Part shown: positions 904 through 9,477 of the stretch, piece by piece | Position numbering within the stretch: position 1 is the stretch's first letter | How the letters are laid out: each line of letters begins with the position of its first letter | Assembly: GCA_034722055.1 (NCBI GenBank) | Contig: JAYENL010000064.1 | Coordinates: forward strand, 1-13,005 | Direction: 5' to 3' | Length of the DNA: 13,005 nt | Origin: Armatimonadota bacterium | Lineage (GTDB): Bacteria > Armatimonadota > Zipacnadia > Zipacnadales > UBA5352 | Position numbers and translations under genes: made by a program | The notes under the pieces: generated by a model | The model's input: only the letters and a program-made list of their open reading frames with translations | Databases searched by the model: none | What the model was told of the DNA's origin: nothing

Positions 904-3783
904 TCAGTATCGCTTCGCCTCGATGCTCGCCCGGCCGCCGTCGGCCAGCCGCACCTTCCACAGCCCCGCGGCTCGCACCACGTCCTGCACGCCCTCGCCG
1001 GCGACCTCGGGCTGCGCATACTCCTCGGTCTCGCAGGGCAGGATCACCGCCGCGCGCACTCCCGCGGGCAGGTCCACTTCGATCGCGAAGCGCTCGTCGT
1101 CACGCTCCCACGCCACCTCGATCTCCCCGTGAGGCGTGGGCATGCGCCCCTCGCACCACTGAAGGTCGAGCGGGATCGGCGCGATGATCGCCCGCTCGAA
1201 GCCCGGCAGCGCCGGCTCCACACCGAGCTGGTAGCGGTGCAGGAAGTACAGCGGCCCGCCCGACCAGGCGTGGCAGCGCGAGCGCGTGCGCTCATCGCCG
1301 AACATCTCCCAGGCGGTGGTCGCGCCGTGCCGGAGCATCTCCCCCCATCGCTCTCGCGTCCAGTCTGCGATCAGCTCGTACAGCCCCAGCTTCGCCAGCG
1401 CCTCGAAGGAGAAGAACGCGAAGAAGGGGCTGCCCATGGTCACGAAGTCCGCCGGCGGGGCGTAGACGTGGCGCTTGACAGACTGGAGTCGGTCTTCGAG
1501 CACCGCCTGGCAGAGGTAGCAGACCGTCTGCGTCTGCTGGCTGAACACCTCCGAGCGGGTGCCGTCATCGTGGATGCTGTCGATGTAGGCCTGCACGTCA
1601 TCGTCCCAGAGGTGCTCGTTGATCGCGTCGATGAGCTCCGGGACAGCGTCCGCGAACGCCTCGGCGTCATCGTCCTCGCCCAGCAGCTCCGCCATCTCTG
1701 CCCCCCGCCGCAACGCCTCCACCAACCAGGCGTTCTGATGCGTCACCACGCCCCGGTTCGGCGTGTCCATCGGCGCCCAGTCGATCATATTCCAGGCCTC
1801 GATCTCCAGCAGACCCTGCGCGTTGCGCATGCCCAGGAAGTTATGCAGCGCCTCCGACACGCGCGGGTAGATCTCTCGCTGGAACTGCAGATCGGCGTCG
1901 TAGAGGTAGACCTCCTCGCAGCCGAGCACCCACAGCTCCGCCCACGCGGTAAGGATGCCCTCATCCCCCGACGGCACTCGGGACTCGGGCACCGGGGAGC
2001 GGAACATCGACTGCGCCGCCAGCCGCCAGCAGCGCTTGGCGAACTCGTAGGTGCCGAAGGCCGCGTAGCCGATCAGCGCCTCGTTGCGCGCATCGCCCAC
2101 CCACAGTGCCTGCTCGTAGAGCGGGCAGTCCACGAAGGTGTCCTCCATGCAGCAGCGCTCGGTGTGCCGACACATCTCCCAGATGCGGTTCAGCAGCGCA
2201 TCGGAGCAGTGGAAGCTCCCCCGCCGGGGCACCGGCAGGGAGTGCAGCAGCACGCGCACCGTCCGGAGCTGCAGCGCCTCGGACAGGCCGCGGACGGTCA
2301 GCAGCATGTAGCGCAGGCCGCGGCGGTGCGGGCTCTGGAAGCGCTGCCAGCCCTCGCGCGTGACGTAGCGCAGCCCTGCATCAATGCGCGTCCACTGCGG
2401 CTCGCCCCCGCGGAAGGCCTCGAAGCCGTAGAAGTCCAGGACCGCCCCGGCCGGCGCCCGCACCTCGAACTCCAGCAGCCCCGAAACCTCCCGGCCGAAG
2501 TCGATGAGGATCTCGCTGTCGCCGGCGGCGTTCGGGTGGATGGCGGTGGCCTCCGCGTTCTCGGCGCAGAGCGCCTGAGGGTCATCGATGGCCGGTGCCG
2601 GCGCGTCCAGCGCCACTGCGTGCTGCGTCATCAGGCCGTTGTGCGCGTCCGTGAAGTGCTCCGGTCGCAGCGCCTCGAACTCCGGCGGGCCCTCGCGCAA
2701 CTGCTCGACCGTCTCGTGCGCCAGCGCCATGGCGGCGAGCTGATCGGCCTCGGCTTCATCCTCGGCATCCAGCACCCAGACGGCCACCGGCGTCTCGCCC
2801 CCCGGTAGCGGCGACGCCACCTCCAACGGTAGCTCAGAATCCAGGCCCAAGGTCACCGTCCCGTAGGTGCGCGTGAGGCCGGTGTCCAGCACCAGCAGGT
2901 TCTCGCCCTCGCGGAGGTCAAGCTCCAGCGACTGCCAGCGGTCCTCAAGCTCTACGGGCTGGCCGTTCAGGCCCACTGCGCGCAGGCCCAGGCGCCCGTA
3001 GGGCAGCAACGTGACGGTGCAGTCCTCCGGCGCGGTGATGACCACCGCCAGGAGCGCCACGATGCGGTCGGCGATCTCGCCCGGCGGGAGGGAGGCGTAC
3101 AGACTGGCGTCCAGCACCTGTCGCGGCGGCCGGACCGTCTGTGCGCTCACCACGCGAGCGGGGTAGGCCGGATCCTCGGTCAGGAAGGGGATCTCGCGTG
3201 GGGACATCCCGGTCCACGGCTCAACCCCGGCGGGGCCGATCTCGGCGGCCCGCTGCCAGGCGCCGTCATCGAAGTCCGCCTCGGTCCAGCCCAGCAGGTC
3301 ATCGCGGGCGTCGAACTGCTCCGCCCAGCCCATCTGCAGCGCCGCCCGCGGCGTGGGCCGCCGCCAGCCGGTGTGCCGCGTGACGCGCCAGGAGGCGTCG
3401 GAGATCAGCAGCTCCCGGCCGTCGGCCTCCAGCCGGCAGATCAGCCCGCCGCGCCCCGGCATGTACTGGTAGGTGGAGATGCCGATGTGGTGCACCAGCA
3501 CCGCGATGACGTTTTCGCCCGCGCGGAGGTGGCGGGCGACCTCGTGGCTGTCGTACTGCTGATCGAAGGGCCAGCAGCGGTTCGGGCCGCGGCCGACCGT
3601 CTGACCGTTGATGTGCAGCACATACCGGCTGTCGGCCGAGATGTGCAGCATGGCCTGTTCGGGCACGTCGTCAAGCTGGAAGGCGCGTCGGGCTGCGAGG
3701 TAGTAGTTCATCGGTGACGCTTCGCCTGGCGGCGCACCCGCACCGCTCGCCCAGATCCACCGGGCGTCGGCGAAGTGACTCAT
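904..3783 (-). CDS. Glycoside hydrolase family 78 (alpha-L-rhamnosidase-like), 959 aa
   Basis: N-terminal 'HISADSRYVLHINGQTVGRGP' (Bac_rhamnosid_N-like), 'ILIDFGREVSG', 'GSFHCSDALLNRIW', acid motif 'DTFVDCPLYEQALWVGD', base motif 'GATTAWEMF...SRCHAWSGGP', C-terminal 'PTPHGEIEVAW'. No obvious signal peptide. Confidence 0.92.
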   Translation of the reverse strand: MSHFADARWIWASGAGAPPGEASPMNYYLAARRAFQLDDVPEQAMLHISADSRYVLHINGQTVGRGPNRCWPFDQQYDSHEVARHLRAGENVIAVLVHHIGISTYQYMPGRGGLICRLEADGRELLISDASWRVTRHTGWRRPTPRAALQMGWAEQFDARDDLLGWTEADFDDGAWQRAAEIGPAGVEPWTGMSPREIPFLTEDPAYPARVVSAQTVRPPRQVLDASLYASLPPGEIADRIVALLAVVITAPEDCTVTLLPYGRLGLRAVGLNGQPVELEDRWQSLELDLREGENLLVLDTGLTRTYGTVTLGLDSELPLEVASPLPGGETPVAVWVLDAEDEAEADQLAAMALAHETVEQLREGPPEFEALRPEHFTDAHNGLMTQHAVALDAPAPAIDDPQALCAENAEATAIHPNAAGDSEILIDFGREVSGLLEFEVRAPAGAVLDFYGFEAFRGGEPQWTRIDAGLRYVTREGWQRFQSPHRRGLRYMLLTVRGLSEALQLRTVRVLLHSLPVPRRGSFHCSDALLNRIWEMCRHTERCCMEDTFVDCPLYEQALWVGDARNEALIGYAAFGTYEFAKRCWRLAAQSMFRSPVPESRVPSGDEGILTAWAELWVLGCEEVYLYDADLQFQREIYPRVSEALHNFLGMRNAQGLLEIEAWNMIDWAPMDTPNRGVVTHQNAWLVEALRRGAEMAELLGEDDDAEAFADAVPELIDAINEHLWDDDVQAYIDSIHDDGTRSEVFSQQTQTVCYLCQAVLEDRLQSVKRHVYAPPADFVTMGSPFFAFFSFEALAKLGLYELIADWTRERWGEMLRHGATTAWEMFGDERTRSRCHAWSGGPLYFLHRYQLGVEPALPGFERAIIAPIPLDLQWCEGRMPTPHGEIEVAWERDDERFAIEVDLPAGVRAAVILPCETEEYAQPEVAGEGVQDVVRAAGLWKVRLADGGRASIEAKRY

Positions 3784-3885: not shown

Positions 3886-6800
3886 TCAGCGGCCGACGAT
3901 GTAGTCCACCGTCTCCGCGTCCGACTGGATGCGGATCATGCCTCCGTCGATCGATGGGCTGGCGTCTGTGGGCTGCGCCGCGAGGTCCCGGCCCAGCACC
4001 CGCCCGGCGTCCGCCAGCTCCGGTGCAAGCTGGCCCAGGTCGATGCTCAGCTCGCGCGTGCCGCGGTCGTCGGGGATGCCCGTCACCCGGCGGTCGTAGT
4101 GGAAGGAATACTCCTCTCCCGGCGCGACCTCCCACACGCCCAGGTTGCCGCAGGGGATGATCCGCAGGCCGTCGTCCTCGCGATGGATCAGCGCCGCGCC
4201 ATCCACCGTCACGCCGCCGTAGGACGCCCGCTCGCCGCCGGAGCTGAGGTAGACGTAGTCCGGGCAGTCCACGTAGTCCACGCGCCGGCCGTCGCGGAGC
4301 GCGCTGAAGGCCTCGAGCTCACCCGGCTTGACCGCCGCCCAGCCCATCGGCGGCAGCGTGTACTCCTCCCCGGCGACCTCCACCGTCCACGGCTCCTCGC
4401 GGTTGTAGTTGACGCACACGATCAGCCCCCGCGAATAGCTCACACGGATGCGGCCGATGTCGAGCATCTCCCGCCGGATCGCCTCGCTGGTGGAGACGAA
4501 GCGCTCGCCGTCATGGCGCTCGATGGAGGTCACCGTGTCGGTCAGCCACTCCCGCTGGGGGCCCGCCAGCATGGCGTAGTAGTGGATCATGCGGTGCAGC
4601 GGCGGGAAGTAGCCGTAGCCGAGGATCGCCGAGTGGCCGTGGGCGATCGTCGCCGCCAGGTACTGGTAGTAGTCCGCCGGCGGCACCGGCCCTCCCGGAT
4701 CGCCGTAGATCTCGCCCAGGTTCTCCTCCCCGAAGAACGGGCGGGGGGTGTAGCCCATGCCGGTCCCGATCTGCTTCGGATGGATCTTAAGCAGGTCGAA
4801 GTCGGGCAGGATGTCGCGCTGGGCGGGCAGCACCGTGCGTATCGGCCAGGTGGCGTAGTCCATGTCGCTGAGGCCCGCGTAGAGCCAGCGGTAGATGCCC
4901 TCCGAGCAGATGATGGCGTCGTGGGTGTCGCGCACGGCCAGGATAGCCTCGCCGTTGAGCTGCGCCTGCGCCGGCCCCGATCCAGCCCCCGGCACGCCGG
5001 CCTCGTAATCGCGCGCGGTCAGCGACTGGTTGGTGTGCGTGTCCATGTAGACCGCGTCGATGGGCACGCGCTCCTCCAGCCGCTCGCCGTTGCGCCTCGC
5101 CAGCATCGTCATCGCCACAGGCTTGGTGGCGTAGTGGCCCGCCCAGGAGGTCTGCCAGTCGCCCCCCGGCGTCAGCGACAGCAGGTCCGGGTCCCAGAAC
5201 TCGTTCATGGGGAAGAAGTCGCGATACTCCAGCAGCACCCCGAAGCGGTAGCCCAGCGAGCGCACCTCGTCCGCGTACTGGCGCATCTGCTCGACGCTCA
5301 TCTCCGGCCGGGGGCGATTGCGCATGCTGAAGCCCTCGCCGGCCCGCCGCCACCACATGCCCCCGAAGTGCATGGCGATGACCTGCTCGATCCCGTAGCG
5401 CGCCATCGTCCGCCACATCTCCGGCGTCGGCCCCCCGCCCATGACGTACATGAACCGCGCCGCCTCGTCGATGCTCTGCGCGCGCGGATTGGGCACGTTG
5501 GGCAGCACCTGCTCGAACTCCGGCGCGACGGTGACGATGATCCGGTCATGCAGGTCCCGCCGCCTCCCGTCGGTGAGCTTCTGGTAGATGGAGCCGCCGT
5601 TGACCGCGACGCCTCCCTCCGCGGTGGGATCGGGAGTGACCTCAGAGACCGAGAAGTCGCAGTTGGGCCAGTCGTAGAGCGCGCTCACGAAGACGTCCTC
5701 GGTGTACGCCACCAGCGGGCCCGGCGGCGTGCCCATCTGCAGGCAGGGCACCTCGGTCGTCTTCATGGCTTCGCCGGACACCACGCCGAACCGCGTCCCG
5801 ACGGCGTCGCCGTCGGCGCAGCGCACGTCCATCACCAGCGTGGCGCCCCGGATGCGGTAGTCGATCGAGAACTCCGCCTCGACTCCCTCCGCGGCAAAGC
5901 GCCAGCGCGTCCTGAGCGTCTCGCCCTCCGTTGTGCGCTCAAGCAACTCGCAGTTCTCCGCACTGGCCAGCACCGGCCCAGCGGGCGTGTCGAAGAGAAT
6001 ACCGCCACCATGCAGCGGCGCGAGGGCAGTCGGGCGTCCCCCGCCTTGCCACTCGAACTTGCACGGCACCCCGAAGGGCCCGCGCTCCTCCAGGTCCAGG
6101 AAGTAGAAGAGCGCCCACTCGTCGGTGCGGCAGGCCAGTTCCCTGATCTCGGCCGGCGCCGCGGAACTGCGCGCCCCCTCCGGCGGCGTGGGCAGCATCG
6201 CGTCCTCGCCCGTGGGGAAGGCCGGATCGGCCGGGCGCGGAGTCTGCGCGTAGGGCTCGCGGGCCTGCTGGTAGAAGGCCACCGACTCCAGCCACAGCCG
6301 GCACGGCTCCTCGCGGTTGCAGCGATCCAGCAGCAGCCCCACGAAGCGCGCGGGAGAGGCGATCCGCTCCCGCTGGCGCGCGCTCAGCGCCGCGTGCGAG
6401 ACGTACCAGTAGTACGCGCGCAGGTGGCCCATGGGGATCTCGTGGCGGCGCCCCTCGGCATCCTCCACCACCGCCACGGGCATGATCGGCCGGGGGACGT
6501 GCAGCGCCCCGCAGTCCACGTACGCCCACAGGTCGATGGCATCCCAGCCGCCCGGGAGGTCGATGGGCTCCGGCGGCTCAAGCTCCAGGATGCTGTTGGC
6601 CTCCCCGCCCTCGCAGCGCACCAGGAGACCCTGCGTCCTCCACGCCGTGTGCTGCCGCGACGCCGCCAGCTCCACCTGCGCGTCGCCCCGGACGTACGCC
6701 GTCCAGCCCGACAGGTCCTCGAAGGTCACCTGCGGCTCCGGCGTCTCCGGCCTGCCCGACCACTGCAGCTCGTAGGGCACCTCGCCCTCCGGCGCATCGG

Positions 6801-7458
6801 CGGGAAGCTCAGCCTCGATGGGCACCTGCCGGCGCTCGGCCATGGCCCCGATGACCTCCCGGCGCATCCGCTCCACCTCCTCGCGGCGCATGGCCGCCAC
6901 CCACACGTCGCTGATCACCAGCGGCGCCGGCTTGCCGAGGACCGCCGGGATGCTCTTCATGGCGTACTCCACCGCCACCGTCAGCGGCTCGCCCGGCCGC
7001 ACGAAGTCAGTGATCTCCCACAGGTAGTCGAAGTCCTCCTCGGCGTCGGTGAGGTCGCCCTCGTAGTCGGGGGCGAAGAGCGCCATCCAGGCCCGGTGGT
7101 GGCGCGAGTACCACTCGAAGTGATACTCGGTGCCCAGCAGGTCGAAGGCCGGGGGCTTGTTCAGCAGCCGCGGCGCGCTGATGGCCTCATCCAGCAGGGC
7201 GTCGTTGAGCAGCACCCGCAGCGCCCAGTTGCACCCGCCCCCGGGATCGACGTGCAGCCGGGCCCGCATGTGCATCACCAGCCGCTCCTCCGGCCCGGCC
7301 TCGGGAGCGGTCACCGTGCTCCGCCACACCTCCTCCGTGGACAGCCGCGCCTCCTCTTCCCGGATCATGACCGGCTCCCCGGAGAGAGGATACTGCTCCT
7401 GGGCGGCGCAGCCGGCGGCGATGAGGCTGGCTGCCGCGATCAGAGCTGCTCTGCTCAT
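3886..7458 (-). CDS. Large exported, probably lipoprotein, putative glycoside hydrolase, 1190 aa; C-terminal half GH129/GH101/DUF5696-like
   Basis: Trimmed from ORF 3886..7650. ATG at 7458 has a GGAGGT RBS. The N-terminus MSRAALIAAASLIAAG-C resembles a signal peptide with lipobox. Motifs 'MRQYADEVRSLGYRFGVLLEYRDFFP', 'AVYMDTHTN' and 'IICSEG' recall the TIM barrel of GH101/GH129-related proteins. The CDS is secure; the family call is tentative. Confidence 0.8.
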   Translation of the reverse strand: MSRAALIAAASLIAAGCAAQEQYPLSGEPVMIREEEARLSTEEVWRSTVTAPEAGPEERLVMHMRARLHVDPGGGCNWALRVLLNDALLDEAISAPRLLNKPPAFDLLGTEYHFEWYSRHHRAWMALFAPDYEGDLTDAEEDFDYLWEITDFVRPGEPLTVAVEYAMKSIPAVLGKPAPLVISDVWVAAMRREEVERMRREVIGAMAERRQVPIEAELPADAPEGEVPYELQWSGRPETPEPQVTFEDLSGWTAYVRGDAQVELAASRQHTAWRTQGLLVRCEGGEANSILELEPPEPIDLPGGWDAIDLWAYVDCGALHVPRPIMPVAVVEDAEGRRHEIPMGHLRAYYWYVSHAALSARQRERIASPARFVGLLLDRCNREEPCRLWLESVAFYQQAREPYAQTPRPADPAFPTGEDAMLPTPPEGARSSAAPAEIRELACRTDEWALFYFLDLEERGPFGVPCKFEWQGGGRPTALAPLHGGGILFDTPAGPVLASAENCELLERTTEGETLRTRWRFAAEGVEAEFSIDYRIRGATLVMDVRCADGDAVGTRFGVVSGEAMKTTEVPCLQMGTPPGPLVAYTEDVFVSALYDWPNCDFSVSEVTPDPTAEGGVAVNGGSIYQKLTDGRRRDLHDRIIVTVAPEFEQVLPNVPNPRAQSIDEAARFMYVMGGGPTPEMWRTMARYGIEQVIAMHFGGMWWRRAGEGFSMRNRPRPEMSVEQMRQYADEVRSLGYRFGVLLEYRDFFPMNEFWDPDLLSLTPGGDWQTSWAGHYATKPVAMTMLARRNGERLEERVPIDAVYMDTHTNQSLTARDYEAGVPGAGSGPAQAQLNGEAILAVRDTHDAIICSEGIYRWLYAGLSDMDYATWPIRTVLPAQRDILPDFDLLKIHPKQIGTGMGYTPRPFFGEENLGEIYGDPGGPVPPADYYQYLAATIAHGHSAILGYGYFPPLHRMIHYYAMLAGPQREWLTDTVTSIERHDGERFVSTSEAIRREMLDIGRIRVSYSRGLIVCVNYNREEPWTVEVAGEEYTLPPMGWAAVKPGELEAFSALRDGRRVDYVDCPDYVYLSSGGERASYGGVTVDGAALIHREDDGLRIIPCGNLGVWEVAPGEEYSFHYDRRVTGIPDDRGTRELSIDLGQLAPELADAGRVLGRDLAAQPTDASPSIDGGMIRIQSDAETVDYIVGR

Positions 7459-7546
7459 GGCACACCTCCGCGGCCAGGTCGATCGTCCCGTGCCTGAGAG
7501 TTGGCCGGGGGCGTGCTGGCATCCTCCCTCGGCGCACGGAGGGCGG

Positions 7547-7579
7547 AAAAGAGAAAGGGGCCGGCCCAGGGCCGGCCCC
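7547..7579 (-). terminator. Rho-independent terminator downstream of the prepilin-like gene
   Basis: The minus strand reads GGGGCCGGCC-CTG-GGCCGGCCCC followed by TTTCTCTTTT, beginning 45 nt after the stop at 7625. Confidence 0.85.
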
Positions 7580-8225
7580 GGAGCACTGCCGCGGGCGGGT
7601 GCGCGTGCGGCTGTTCGCCGCACATCACGGCGACAGGGCGCTGTCGTCATCCCAGAACAGGATGGAGGTGTTCTCGGTGTAGCTCCACGTCCCCTTCAGG
7701 TGCGCCTCCGAGTACCACTTCGCATGACCGTCGGCCATGCCCGCGTTCATGCCATCGTTGTGGCGACCGAAGGCAGCGGTGTCGTAGCCCCACGGCGCCG
7801 AGGTCCCCAGCAGTGTGAGGCAGCCGTGGTTGCTGGTCCCGATCTCCGTGATCTCTCCGAAGGCCATGAGCTCGGCCGGGTGCTTGATCATCGACAGCGG
7901 AATCCCACCCCCGTAGACGTTGTGGTTCGACCCGGTGAGGTGGTAGTAGCCCCACTGGTAGGGCTGGGAGTAGCCCCGCACCAGGTTCGGCTGGCTGGGA
8001 CAGCGGAGTATGTCGTCATTCTTGATATACGGTGTAAGCGTGTTGTACCAGCGGGAGATCTCCGGCGTGGTGTAGTCCATGTTCAGCGGAGTCAGCTCGT
8101 CGTAGTCCTGGCAGTACATGTGGAAGGCCAGCATGAGCTGCTTCATGTTGGACAGACAGGCGGTCTGGCGCGCCTTCTCGCGAGCCCTAGCAAACACCGG
8201 GAACAGGATCGCCGCCAGGATCGCG

Positions 8226-8246
8226 ATGATGTGACCGCTGAAAAAG
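8226..8246 (+). repeat. Left inverted repeat ATGATGTGACCGCTGAAAAAG
   Basis: Exact reverse complement of 8321-8341. Confidence 0.97.
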
Positions 8247-8320
8247 GTGGATTGGGAAGAATGTGATCCACGCAGCGCCCTGAGGATCGCCACAGCGCCG
8301 CGCCGATATTCAGTTTCCGG

Positions 8321-8341
8321 CTTTTTCAGCGGTCACATCAT
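8321..8341 (-). repeat. Right inverted repeat (+ strand CTTTTTCAGCGGTCACATCAT); contains the in-frame TGA
   Basis: Exact reverse complement of 8226-8246. Confidence 0.97.
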
Positions 8342-8440
8342 GGCGATCACGACGAGGAGCTCGATGAGCGTAAAGCCCCTACGCATATGCACACCCCCGT
8401 CTCAGATTCGGCATTCGCGTGGGGGTTTGTCCCCCCGCGG

Positions 8441-8500
8441 AACTGTTTTAAGTATACCCGACGTGTCCTATCTCGCCTTCGTTTCGTACGTTAAACTTCT
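8441..8500 (-). promoter_or_regulatory. Probable promoter of the prepilin-like gene (sigma70-like -10 TATACT at 8456-8451)
   Basis: AT-rich island in otherwise GC-rich DNA. The minus strand reads GGGTATACTTAAAACAG about 65 nt upstream of the ATG. No consensus -35 at 17-bp spacing, so activation may be required. Confidence 0.5.
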
Positions 8501-8934
8501 GTGCAGGGCGAGACCATGCCTAAGAGGGCAGCGAAAGCGCTCATGCGCCACCTCCGCTCACCCCTACGGGCACGACGTTTGCCGTCTGCTGGAAAGCGCG
8601 AAGTTGTCCCGCGCAAGTCGTTGTCGTCCGCCGTCGCCCTGATGTCGTACGGAGCGGCGGGCTGCCCAGCCCGCCAGCCGTTCCCGTGTGTCGTCGCCGT
8701 TCGGAGCGCCCGGGTCTTACGACCGTGTTGGGCCGACCTCCCCGGGGTCCTTCGCACCGCTCGTCGTGCGGCCCCTCCACCCGAATGTCGCGCAACTCCA
8801 CGAGAGCCAAGCGCCGGCGGGCGTGAGGCTGCCAGCCCGACAGCGCACGGAGGAATGTCGCCGCCGGCGGCAAAACTGCGTCCCGAAAGGCCGCATCCGC
8901 TGTCGCCGGTACTGAGGACACTGGGGAGGATCAC

Positions 8935-9477
8935 ATGGCAGATGAGAACGCGCCGTGGCTGGTGCGCACGTCCGACGGAGAGACGCTCGGCCCCTTCGAT
9001 GCTGATGAGCTCGCGGAGCTGCTGGCCGAGGGCCGCGTGGGCCGTGACGATCTCGTGAAGTCCGAGGATACCGGGCGCGTCCGCCGCGTCCGCGACGTCC
9101 TCACGTCGGAGCAGCTCGAAGCCGCGACGGCTCCCAGTGAGGCCATCCCGGAGGAGGGCGAGGAGGCCGAGGGAAGCGGCATGGACCGCCTGCTTCCCGC
9201 CCTCGGCAGGCAATGGGTGTGGCTGTTCGTGCCCACCTTCGGGATGCCGGTGGGCTTCCTGGTGGCCCTGGCCTACTGGCTGGTGGGCTGGCTGGGCGCC
9301 GCCCACTGCCGCACGACACGCGGCGAGCGCTCGGCGGAGGCCGTCATCAAGACCGCTCGCAACTGGCTCATCGCCTGGGCGGTGGCCCTGACGGCGGCCT
9401 TCCTGGCCCTCTTCCTGCTTCAGGCCTGGGCGGTCGCCAACGCCCTCATGTCGATGCGGGATATCCTGGGTCAATAG
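8935..9477 (+). CDS. Membrane protein with N-terminal GYF_2 (DUF4339)-like domain, 180 aa
   Basis: GGGGAGGA RBS. 'WLVRTSDGETLGPFDADELAELLAEGRVGRDDLV' fits the GYF_2 pattern W...G...GP...EL..L...G.....LV. An acidic linker is followed by hydrophobic segments. Confidence 0.8.
   Translation: MADENAPWLVRTSDGETLGPFDADELAELLAEGRVGRDDLVKSEDTGRVRRVRDVLTSEQLEAATAPSEAIPEEGEEAEGSGMDRLLPALGRQWVWLFVPTFGMPVGFLVALAYWLVGWLGAAHCRTTRGERSAEAVIKTARNWLIAWAVALTAAFLALFLLQAWAVANALMSMRDILGQ

Follow-up and report, generated by a model that had tools for sequence, protein, structure and literature searches.

A 106-bp mini-element of a prepilin-targeting IS1182 clade interrupts a DUF1559 gene in an Armatimonadota bacterium

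Results

The interrupted prepilin gene

The window, the whole stretch of DNA analysed here (13,005 nucleotides of contig JAYENL010000064.1 from an Armatimonadota bacterium), carries on its minus strand a prepilin-type/DUF1559 gene that lies in two parts. The 5' part, MRRGFTLIELLVVIA, comprises codons 1-15 (8342..8386, with the gene start at 8386), and an insert separates it from IIAILAAILFPVFARAREKARQ. The 3' part (7625..8230) matches DUF1559 in a profile search, and the earlier reading of its roughly 200 codons as free of stops and as including H-X9-DG was borne out, there being 201 open codons and an H-X9-DG match to TIGR04294 of 24.9 bits (cut-off 19). DUF1559 has been described as one of the largest families of Planctomycetes (PMC4807772). 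The closest intact homolog found, L311 of genome G007, has about 69% DNA identity and ATCAT at the centre of the target site described below.

Gene callers conceal the insertion, as had been claimed, because a GTG at 8293, inside the insert, gives them an ORF start (7625..8293, minus strand) and so a product that lacks the prepilin cleavage site. A conserved translational restart inside the element was considered and rejected: the homologous frame in the related element of genome G009 contains a stop, and the reading frame is kept in just 6 of the 17 mini-element insertions at this site, all belonging to the one family whose insertion adds 111 bp in frame.

Directly 3' of the gene lies a terminator-like hairpin with a T-run (7557..7579, minus strand, a consensus match). 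This makes weak the proposal that the gene heads a glycan-use locus, and polar control of the downstream, rhamnosidase-containing region is therefore not indicated. That region includes a minus-strand open frame of 1,254 codons without a Pfam match (3886-7650), which likely begins near a lipoprotein-like signal, and, beyond it, an alpha-L-rhamnosidase-type gene (904-3783). On the other side, a G+C-rich hairpin (8418-8439) precedes the prepilin start codon by about 30 bases, and a 52-bp piece upstream of this hairpin resembles a repeated leader in genome G001. The intergenic stretch at 8624-8800, upstream of the prepilin gene, is highly repeated, with a summed contig depth of up to about 3,300 against 50 and many loose ends. 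An Rfam search of 7500-9000 gave no match.

Anatomy of the element

The insert is a non-coding, non-autonomous miniature element (MITE) of 106 bp (8231..8336), one of three copies in the genome that carries the window (G000), and it belongs to the prepilin-targeting IS1182 clade described below. Perfect 21-bp inverted repeats (8226-8246 and 8321-8341) do surround a 74-bp spacer, and the recognition of a mini-element from the sequence alone was correct, but its size of 111 bp was not: the element is 106 bp long with 16-bp terminal inverted repeats, and the outer 5 bp are a target duplication. These boundaries are fixed by the two other copies, which differ from the window copy at 0-1 positions inside the element and are flanked by the equal duplicates ATTAT/ATTAT (C57) and ATCAT/ATCAT (C149). 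The repeat seems to be 21 bp long in the window because the two duplicates there differ at their centre, being ATGAT and ATCAT in gene sense. The downstream duplicate (8226..8230, minus strand, ATCAT) has the ancestral form, which is also that of the intact G007 homolog, and the upstream duplicate (8337..8341, minus strand, ATGAT) has a changed central base that contigs of public sequencing runs reproduce without difference. Outside the duplicates lie the two arms of the target palindrome, ATCGCC on the left (8342..8347, minus strand, codons Ile-Ala) and CGCGAT on the right (8220..8225, minus strand). Removal of 111 bp restores the frame (762-111=651 nt), as predicted; the predicted VIAIIAIL, however, is only one outcome, the other being VIAMIAIL, depending on which duplicate stays.

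One terminal repeat, GTGACCGCTGAAAAAG (8231..8246, plus strand), has 2 differences from the left end of the resident IS, CTGACTGCTGAAAAAG. In the opposite repeat (8321..8336, minus strand), bases 2-4 are the stop TGA (8335-8333), which terminates the leader peptide MRRGFTLIELLVVIAMM. With its flanks, the insertion folds as a long hairpin of -44.7 kcal/mol. Homologs of the 106-bp MITE are present in genomes G009 and G014, with terminal repeats changed at both ends.

The junctions are supported by contigs from four public runs (X1-X4) of a single study, from which this DNA may itself have come. Three of the four runs cover the upstream junction without differences (X1-X3, depths 53.8, 14.2 and 35), and three cover the downstream junction (X2-X4, among the pieces listed; depths 13.8, 58.2 and 3); these depths are mostly near those of the gene's unique part, which are 50, 17.8, 41-53 and 4-8 by run. 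Separate contigs without differences thus cover each of the two junctions, and the window insertion is not an assembly artefact. Elsewhere in G000, the contig across one IS junction (L013:300-348, C203) has a depth of 10.3 in run X1 against 39 in the flank, a weak hint that the population is polymorphic for this insertion.

A probable autonomous IS1182 partner

Ten further ends turned up in G000 in a loose terminal-repeat search. All of them lie at contig edges and belong, five left and five right, to a collapsed IS that is assembled at its two ends only. The ORF at the left end is 99% identical over 68 residues to protein P0001 (510 aa), the C-terminus of which agrees with the right-end frame KPPCGAG. 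P0001 scores 333 bits against the NCBIfam IS1182 model (cut-off 270), all four proteins tested exceed that cut-off, and its architecture is DUF772 followed by DDE_Tnp_1/DDE_Tnp_1_6; a relative has a source name from Armatimonadetes. Complete IS1182 relatives consist of a single ORF between short terminal inverted repeats, 1,756-1,888 bp in all. The interior contig of the G000 IS stands at roughly 5-8 times single-copy depth, so that some IS ends are missing from the assembly.

Compared with the two resident IS ends, the terminal repeat of the MITE has 2 and 4 mismatches in its 16 positions. An IS with exactly the MITE ends is absent from the G000 assembly, and an IS end in genome G016 has them. 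Such differences look tolerated, since single elements of the clade (L085, L126 and L155) carry mixed ends. A comparison of the MITE interior with 61 complete elements yielded nothing significant (best E 0.066). The autonomous partner with similar ends that had been anticipated thus exists in G000 as an IS1182 element, and its transposase or that of a sister IS in all probability moves the MITE in trans.

Residues D144, D257, D324 and E455 are invariant in 76 sequences, and the catalytic aspartates are probably among the first three. A structure model built from these 76 sequences reached a pLDDT of 90, and its closest fold is Tn5 (Z 16.7, rmsd 4.4, 270 aligned), followed by Tn4430 (Z 14.8, rmsd 4.3, 260 aligned); piggyBac gives Z 13.7, rmsd 5.5 and 273 aligned. 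Foldseek also placed Tn5 on top, with no match at E<=0.001, an earlier model with a pLDDT of 60.5 had no structural match, and a sequence search of solved structures found nothing meaningful. Tn4430 is a replicative transposase, and the fold therefore does not fix the chemistry of the enzyme.

A 17-bp palindrome within a protein motif is the target

The codons of Ile-Ala-Ile-Ile-Ala-Ile spell a 17-bp palindrome, ATNGCN-ATNAT-NGCNAT, that is degenerate at wobble positions only. All 36 intact matches to it in G000 (6.1 Mb) are prepilin genes and, with 8 interrupted upstream halves, at least 8 of about 44 targets are occupied. The proposal that a conserved, multicopy N-terminal coding sequence serves as the target was supported, as all three MITEs and 9 of the 10 IS ends in G000 sit, in both orientations, at the same prepilin codon; the random or intergenic copies that would have spoken for an ordinary MITE were looked for, and none of the three is of that kind. 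The tenth IS end (L021:113-294, C249) is found within an IS4 transposase gene, where the site GTGATGGTG-TATTA bears a partial resemblance to the prepilin half-site.

To look beyond this genome, ends were searched without regard to their flanks in 67 genomes of the order, 24 of which matched. Prepilin halves flank 62 of the 91 distinct ends. The other 29 comprise one prepilin half with a 1-bp deletion, two ends of a single off-target MITE, seven from other mini-elements of genome G018, and 19 that look like chance, since a reversed control pattern gives 20 matches. The junction pattern occurs in 23 of 401 genomes of the phylum, mostly of this order, several of these being chance matches with one mismatch. 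A second, transposase-centred set was drawn from loci on 80 metagenome and 13 genome contigs, plus relatives, and gave a tree of 78 rows. In it, a clade of 69 rows (SH-aLRT 95 in a quick tree search) has a prepilin junction in 67; the remaining two are L052, with 2 flank bases only, and P0001, for which there is no DNA. L215, at 34% identity the most divergent of the targeted elements, falls just outside this branch, and the 8 other rows outside it are without a prepilin junction. The targeted clade spans 34-75% protein identity, and downstream halves read at its transposase loci are of the IIAILAAILFPVF type or close variants. That the window MITE belongs to a site-specific IS1182 clade is well supported.

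Could this pattern reflect unspecific insertion that survives in redundant prepilin genes, or misassembly? The genes are indeed redundant, with 1-147 intact sites per genome, and assemblers do mis-join repeats: by a count made by eye, 25 of 51 assembled full-length elements have flanks that cannot belong together (5'/5' or 3'/3'). Survival, however, cannot fix a single phosphodiester position in both orientations across a clade of 34-75% protein identity, and all 17 on-target MITEs are properly paired 5'/3', with junction contigs in several runs, which leaves this explanation a negligible probability.

A further alternative is recognition of structure rather than sequence. Elements of the same family, IS1272 and TnSha1, target hairpins with little sequence conservation (PMC4923244, PMC5678879), and the prepilin motif might be palindromic by chance and be hit as a cruciform. 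G000 has, however, 347 perfect palindromes of the target shape, of which just 19 are of the target type, so structure alone does not explain the choice of site: the 328 others compare with one off-target end. Wobble positions often break the symmetry of occupied targets, the window's included, and insertion produces a fixed 5-bp duplication, not a deletion. Cruciform targeting is accordingly very unlikely in our estimation. A guide or bridge RNA was also considered and rejected: the non-coding ends of 50 elements contain 0 target half-sites against 0.21 expected, and no Rfam match was obtained around the MITE.

The known off-target cases are the C249 IS end, the MITE L160 and about five diverged intergenic mini-elements of 100-120 bp in G018 (L150, L173, L180, L317 and L318), which have clade-like terminal repeats and other duplications (8 bp in L180) and are probably MITEs of another IS1182 group. 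One prepilin junction, L194 (G417:C254), has lost a base of the duplication and reads A-CAT in place of ATCAT. G000 also contains intergenic tandem arrays with a 14-bp unit, CTGAC(C/T)GCTGATAG (C29, C38, C76, C186, C198, C239 and C240), the first 10 bases of which equal the start of the IS/MITE terminal repeat; this may be chance or may reflect a link to the transposase.

MITEs across genomes and the stop codon at their ends

Nine genomes hold 17 on-target mini-elements, and one off-target copy, L160, was found besides. They are 106-111 bp long in 16 of 17 cases, and most of their interiors are unrelated. A 98-bp pairing at L073 (a full IS end, loosely matched), one CTACT row and two pattern matches without ATNAT flanks (G041 and G015) were dropped from this set. 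In either orientation, bases 2-4 of the end form the next codon in the host frame, so that insertion truncates the protein after about 17 residues. This triplet is a stop in 126 of 128 true end types (TGA 93, TAG 18, TAA 15; TGG never), after exclusion of six false ends in intact genes, and both exceptions belong to the L215 element. Selection of the ends for a clean stop may be suggested from these sequences, and is a suggestion only, because related ends are not independent.

The central-base scar

Unequal duplicates like those of the window occur in 6 of the 17 MITE insertions, which are short enough to be spanned by reads; five have G upstream and C downstream, and one has C/G. Among distinct junctions, the upstream halves carry a central G in 15 of 100 cases and the downstream halves in 2 of 96 (Fisher p=0.0016 on a near-identical junction set, in which kin are not independent). 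A central G, that is Met in the protein, is found at 2 of 2,976 intact sites in 67 genomes, and the G of the upstream halves therefore arises at or after insertion.

What might explain why one duplicate changes? The scar is best explained by donor-derived overhangs on the excised ends, a reading to which we would give an even chance. The principal alternative is that the transposase makes an ordinary 5-bp duplication, and that template switching within the resulting quasi-palindrome, during replication or gap repair, makes the duplicates unequal. Template-switch mutagenesis in imperfect palindromes is established. All six unequal on-target pairs make the arms more perfect and all are C/G, as such copying predicts, and the long hairpin fold of the insertion would favor it. 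The copy L234 has, in addition, a change 9 bases further out that fits a longer copied tract, but it is an old, decayed copy and the exception: in the other cases, the change ends at the edge of the duplication. The base just outside is unconverted, being C in 4/15 against 20/85, where copying from the opposite arm would give G or A only. The scar is found at the ends of 1.8-kb elements as well, and 10 of the 15 G halves come from outside the MITE pairs. The off-target MITE L160, a single old copy, has the duplicates ACGAT/ACCAT, which fit a GAT overhang and not a copy of the opposite arm; 8 other genomes of the genus were searched for its empty allele, without success. Template switching is accordingly a tentative alternative, less likely than not. 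No reliably linked non-complementary pair of duplicates was found, an attempt to pair the 10 IS ends of G000 through orthologs in 5 genomes of the family did not resolve their partners, and the assembled full-length elements cannot decide the origin of the scar, given their impossible flank pairs.

Does the insertion act as a switch?

The sequence-only reading had seen in the intact downstream frame an ON/OFF switch worked by precise excision. In its strongest form, the whole 5-nt duplication would be carried as overhangs, as in the TTAA manner of piggyBac, the donor would re-anneal seamlessly, and prepilin genes would cycle off and on. Several observations are compatible with this. Where at least 800 nt of an interrupted 3' half were available, the frame was open for at least 145 codons in 36 of 37 cases, although the junction filter favors young copies; the family persists with at least 8 of about 44 targets occupied; the scar suggests that donor bases travel; and piggyBac offers a precedent (PMC7351741). 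Other observations count against it. No joint of the window gene's own halves was found in the contigs of the four runs, and no circle joint of the MITE among the contigs listed, with the reservation that contigs drop rare variants; the skips listed derive from paralogs with other letters, and junction contigs are near single-copy depth. Excision from a G/C site should leave Met about half the time, and among the 1,182 intact sites of the 19 genomes that bear an element none has it (at 95%, the upper bound is 0.25%), although Met alleles may be purged. The sole Met-centred intact sites among the 2,976, L229 (G059) and L230 (G028), sit in genomes without a shown prepilin junction, and the one old copy, L234, has decayed. 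A reversible switch is thus improbable, and with no restored allele, no Met footprint and one decayed old copy, the window element reads as a knockout element aimed at a gene family, not as a regulated switch.

Discussion

A MITE with a 5-bp duplication truncates the prepilin gene, and we propose that it was placed there in trans, very likely by a predicted palindrome-reading IS1182 transposase. Direct protein read-out of the site is also likely, with a transposase dimer delivering a 5-nt staggered attack at the palindrome centre. The predicted enzyme would recognise ATNGCN-ATNAT-NGCNAT by sequence, and the stagger would yield the 5-bp duplication. The excised ends may keep a short 5' overhang of the donor flank, comparable with piggyBac and Tn7 ends, and, as all donors share an ATNAT flank, the overhang could pair within the 5-nt gap opened at the new site. 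When the orientation flips, a central G:G mismatch would arise upstream or a C:C mismatch downstream. A G:G mismatch is thermodynamically better tolerated than C:C, and the former may be fixed more often, leading to the ATGAT/ATCAT of the window. Of the roughly 44 paralogous targets, one would thereby be knocked out, and together they would offer the element a renewable niche at low cost.

The clade resembles the IS1182 family and its members IS1272 and TnSha1 in the DUF772 + DDE transposase, 16-bp terminal repeats, palindromic targets and use of both orientations. IS1272 is reported to enter terminator-like hairpins without a sequence consensus, which are partly deleted, and to make no duplication (PMC5678879, PMC4923244). 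Unlike IS1272, the present clade uses one coding sequence and one position with a 5-bp duplication, and stem-loop replacement of the IS1272 type is not what is seen, as the duplication includes the variable centre (T/T in C57, C/C in C149). Like other bacterial MITEs, of which Correia elements are an example, the window element is short, non-coding and multicopy, with ends and duplication in common with an autonomous IS. It differs from them in that 17 of the 18 insertions examined are at one codon of one gene family, with such a narrow range of lengths.

Site-specific elements with multicopy targets include IS1111-attC/IS110 bridge elements, ISPa11 in REP sequences, R2 in rDNA and Tn7 at attTn7. 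Like these, the clade has a renewable landing site in host sequence that is conserved and repeated; unlike them, it destroys a protein-coding target, and neither a guide-like sequence nor a separate targeting protein was found. The enzyme is of the DDE type and a duplication is present, which is not as in the bridge-RNA elements of IS110/IS1111. To our knowledge, the apparent reading of a 17-bp site by a single-protein DDE transposase is unusual, such sites being mostly the province of Tn7-like, IS110 or recombinase systems. IS-based phase variation is known from IS1301 in siaA and IS492 in eps, where, as here, the insertion has a defined position in a gene whose product is likely surface-related; in the present case, many paralogs are struck rather than one switch locus, and reversion was not seen in the run contigs.

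With piggyBac, the clade shares a fixed, short palindromic duplication and an RNase H-like fold near Tn5, and the donor overhangs proposed here would be a further likeness. The overhangs of piggyBac come from a hairpin that is cut 4 nt inside the flank, in a pathway common with Tn5 (PMC7351741). It is unlike piggyBac, a eukaryotic element with a 4-nt TTAA target and no variable centre, in having a 17-bp site, and seamless excision, proven for piggyBac, is unsupported here. It is unlikely that the clade is a full counterpart of piggyBac in bacteria, combining a 17-bp target read by protein, a carried duplication, seamless reversible silencing and ends selected as stops in either orientation. 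The literature searched, with few subscription journals, no ISfinder and no supplements, contains no IS or MITE that targets prepilin/DUF1559 genes; look-ups for the MITE or the central-base scar found nothing, and the parts available of 10.1101/2024.06.02.596822 and PMC7043111 hold nothing further on the subject.

A practical consequence of these insertions is that assemblies break at prepilin genes and that gene callers go astray. The central-base scar offers a way to probe by experiment how IS1182 elements excise, and the transposase, if it does read the 17-bp site, would be a compact site-specific insertion tool for which the MITE shows that 106 bp are enough as cargo ends. The insertions also amount to natural knockouts in a large gene family whose function is not known. 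In this bacterial order, a protein motif creates a DNA palindrome, and the palindrome is kept as the niche of a parasite.
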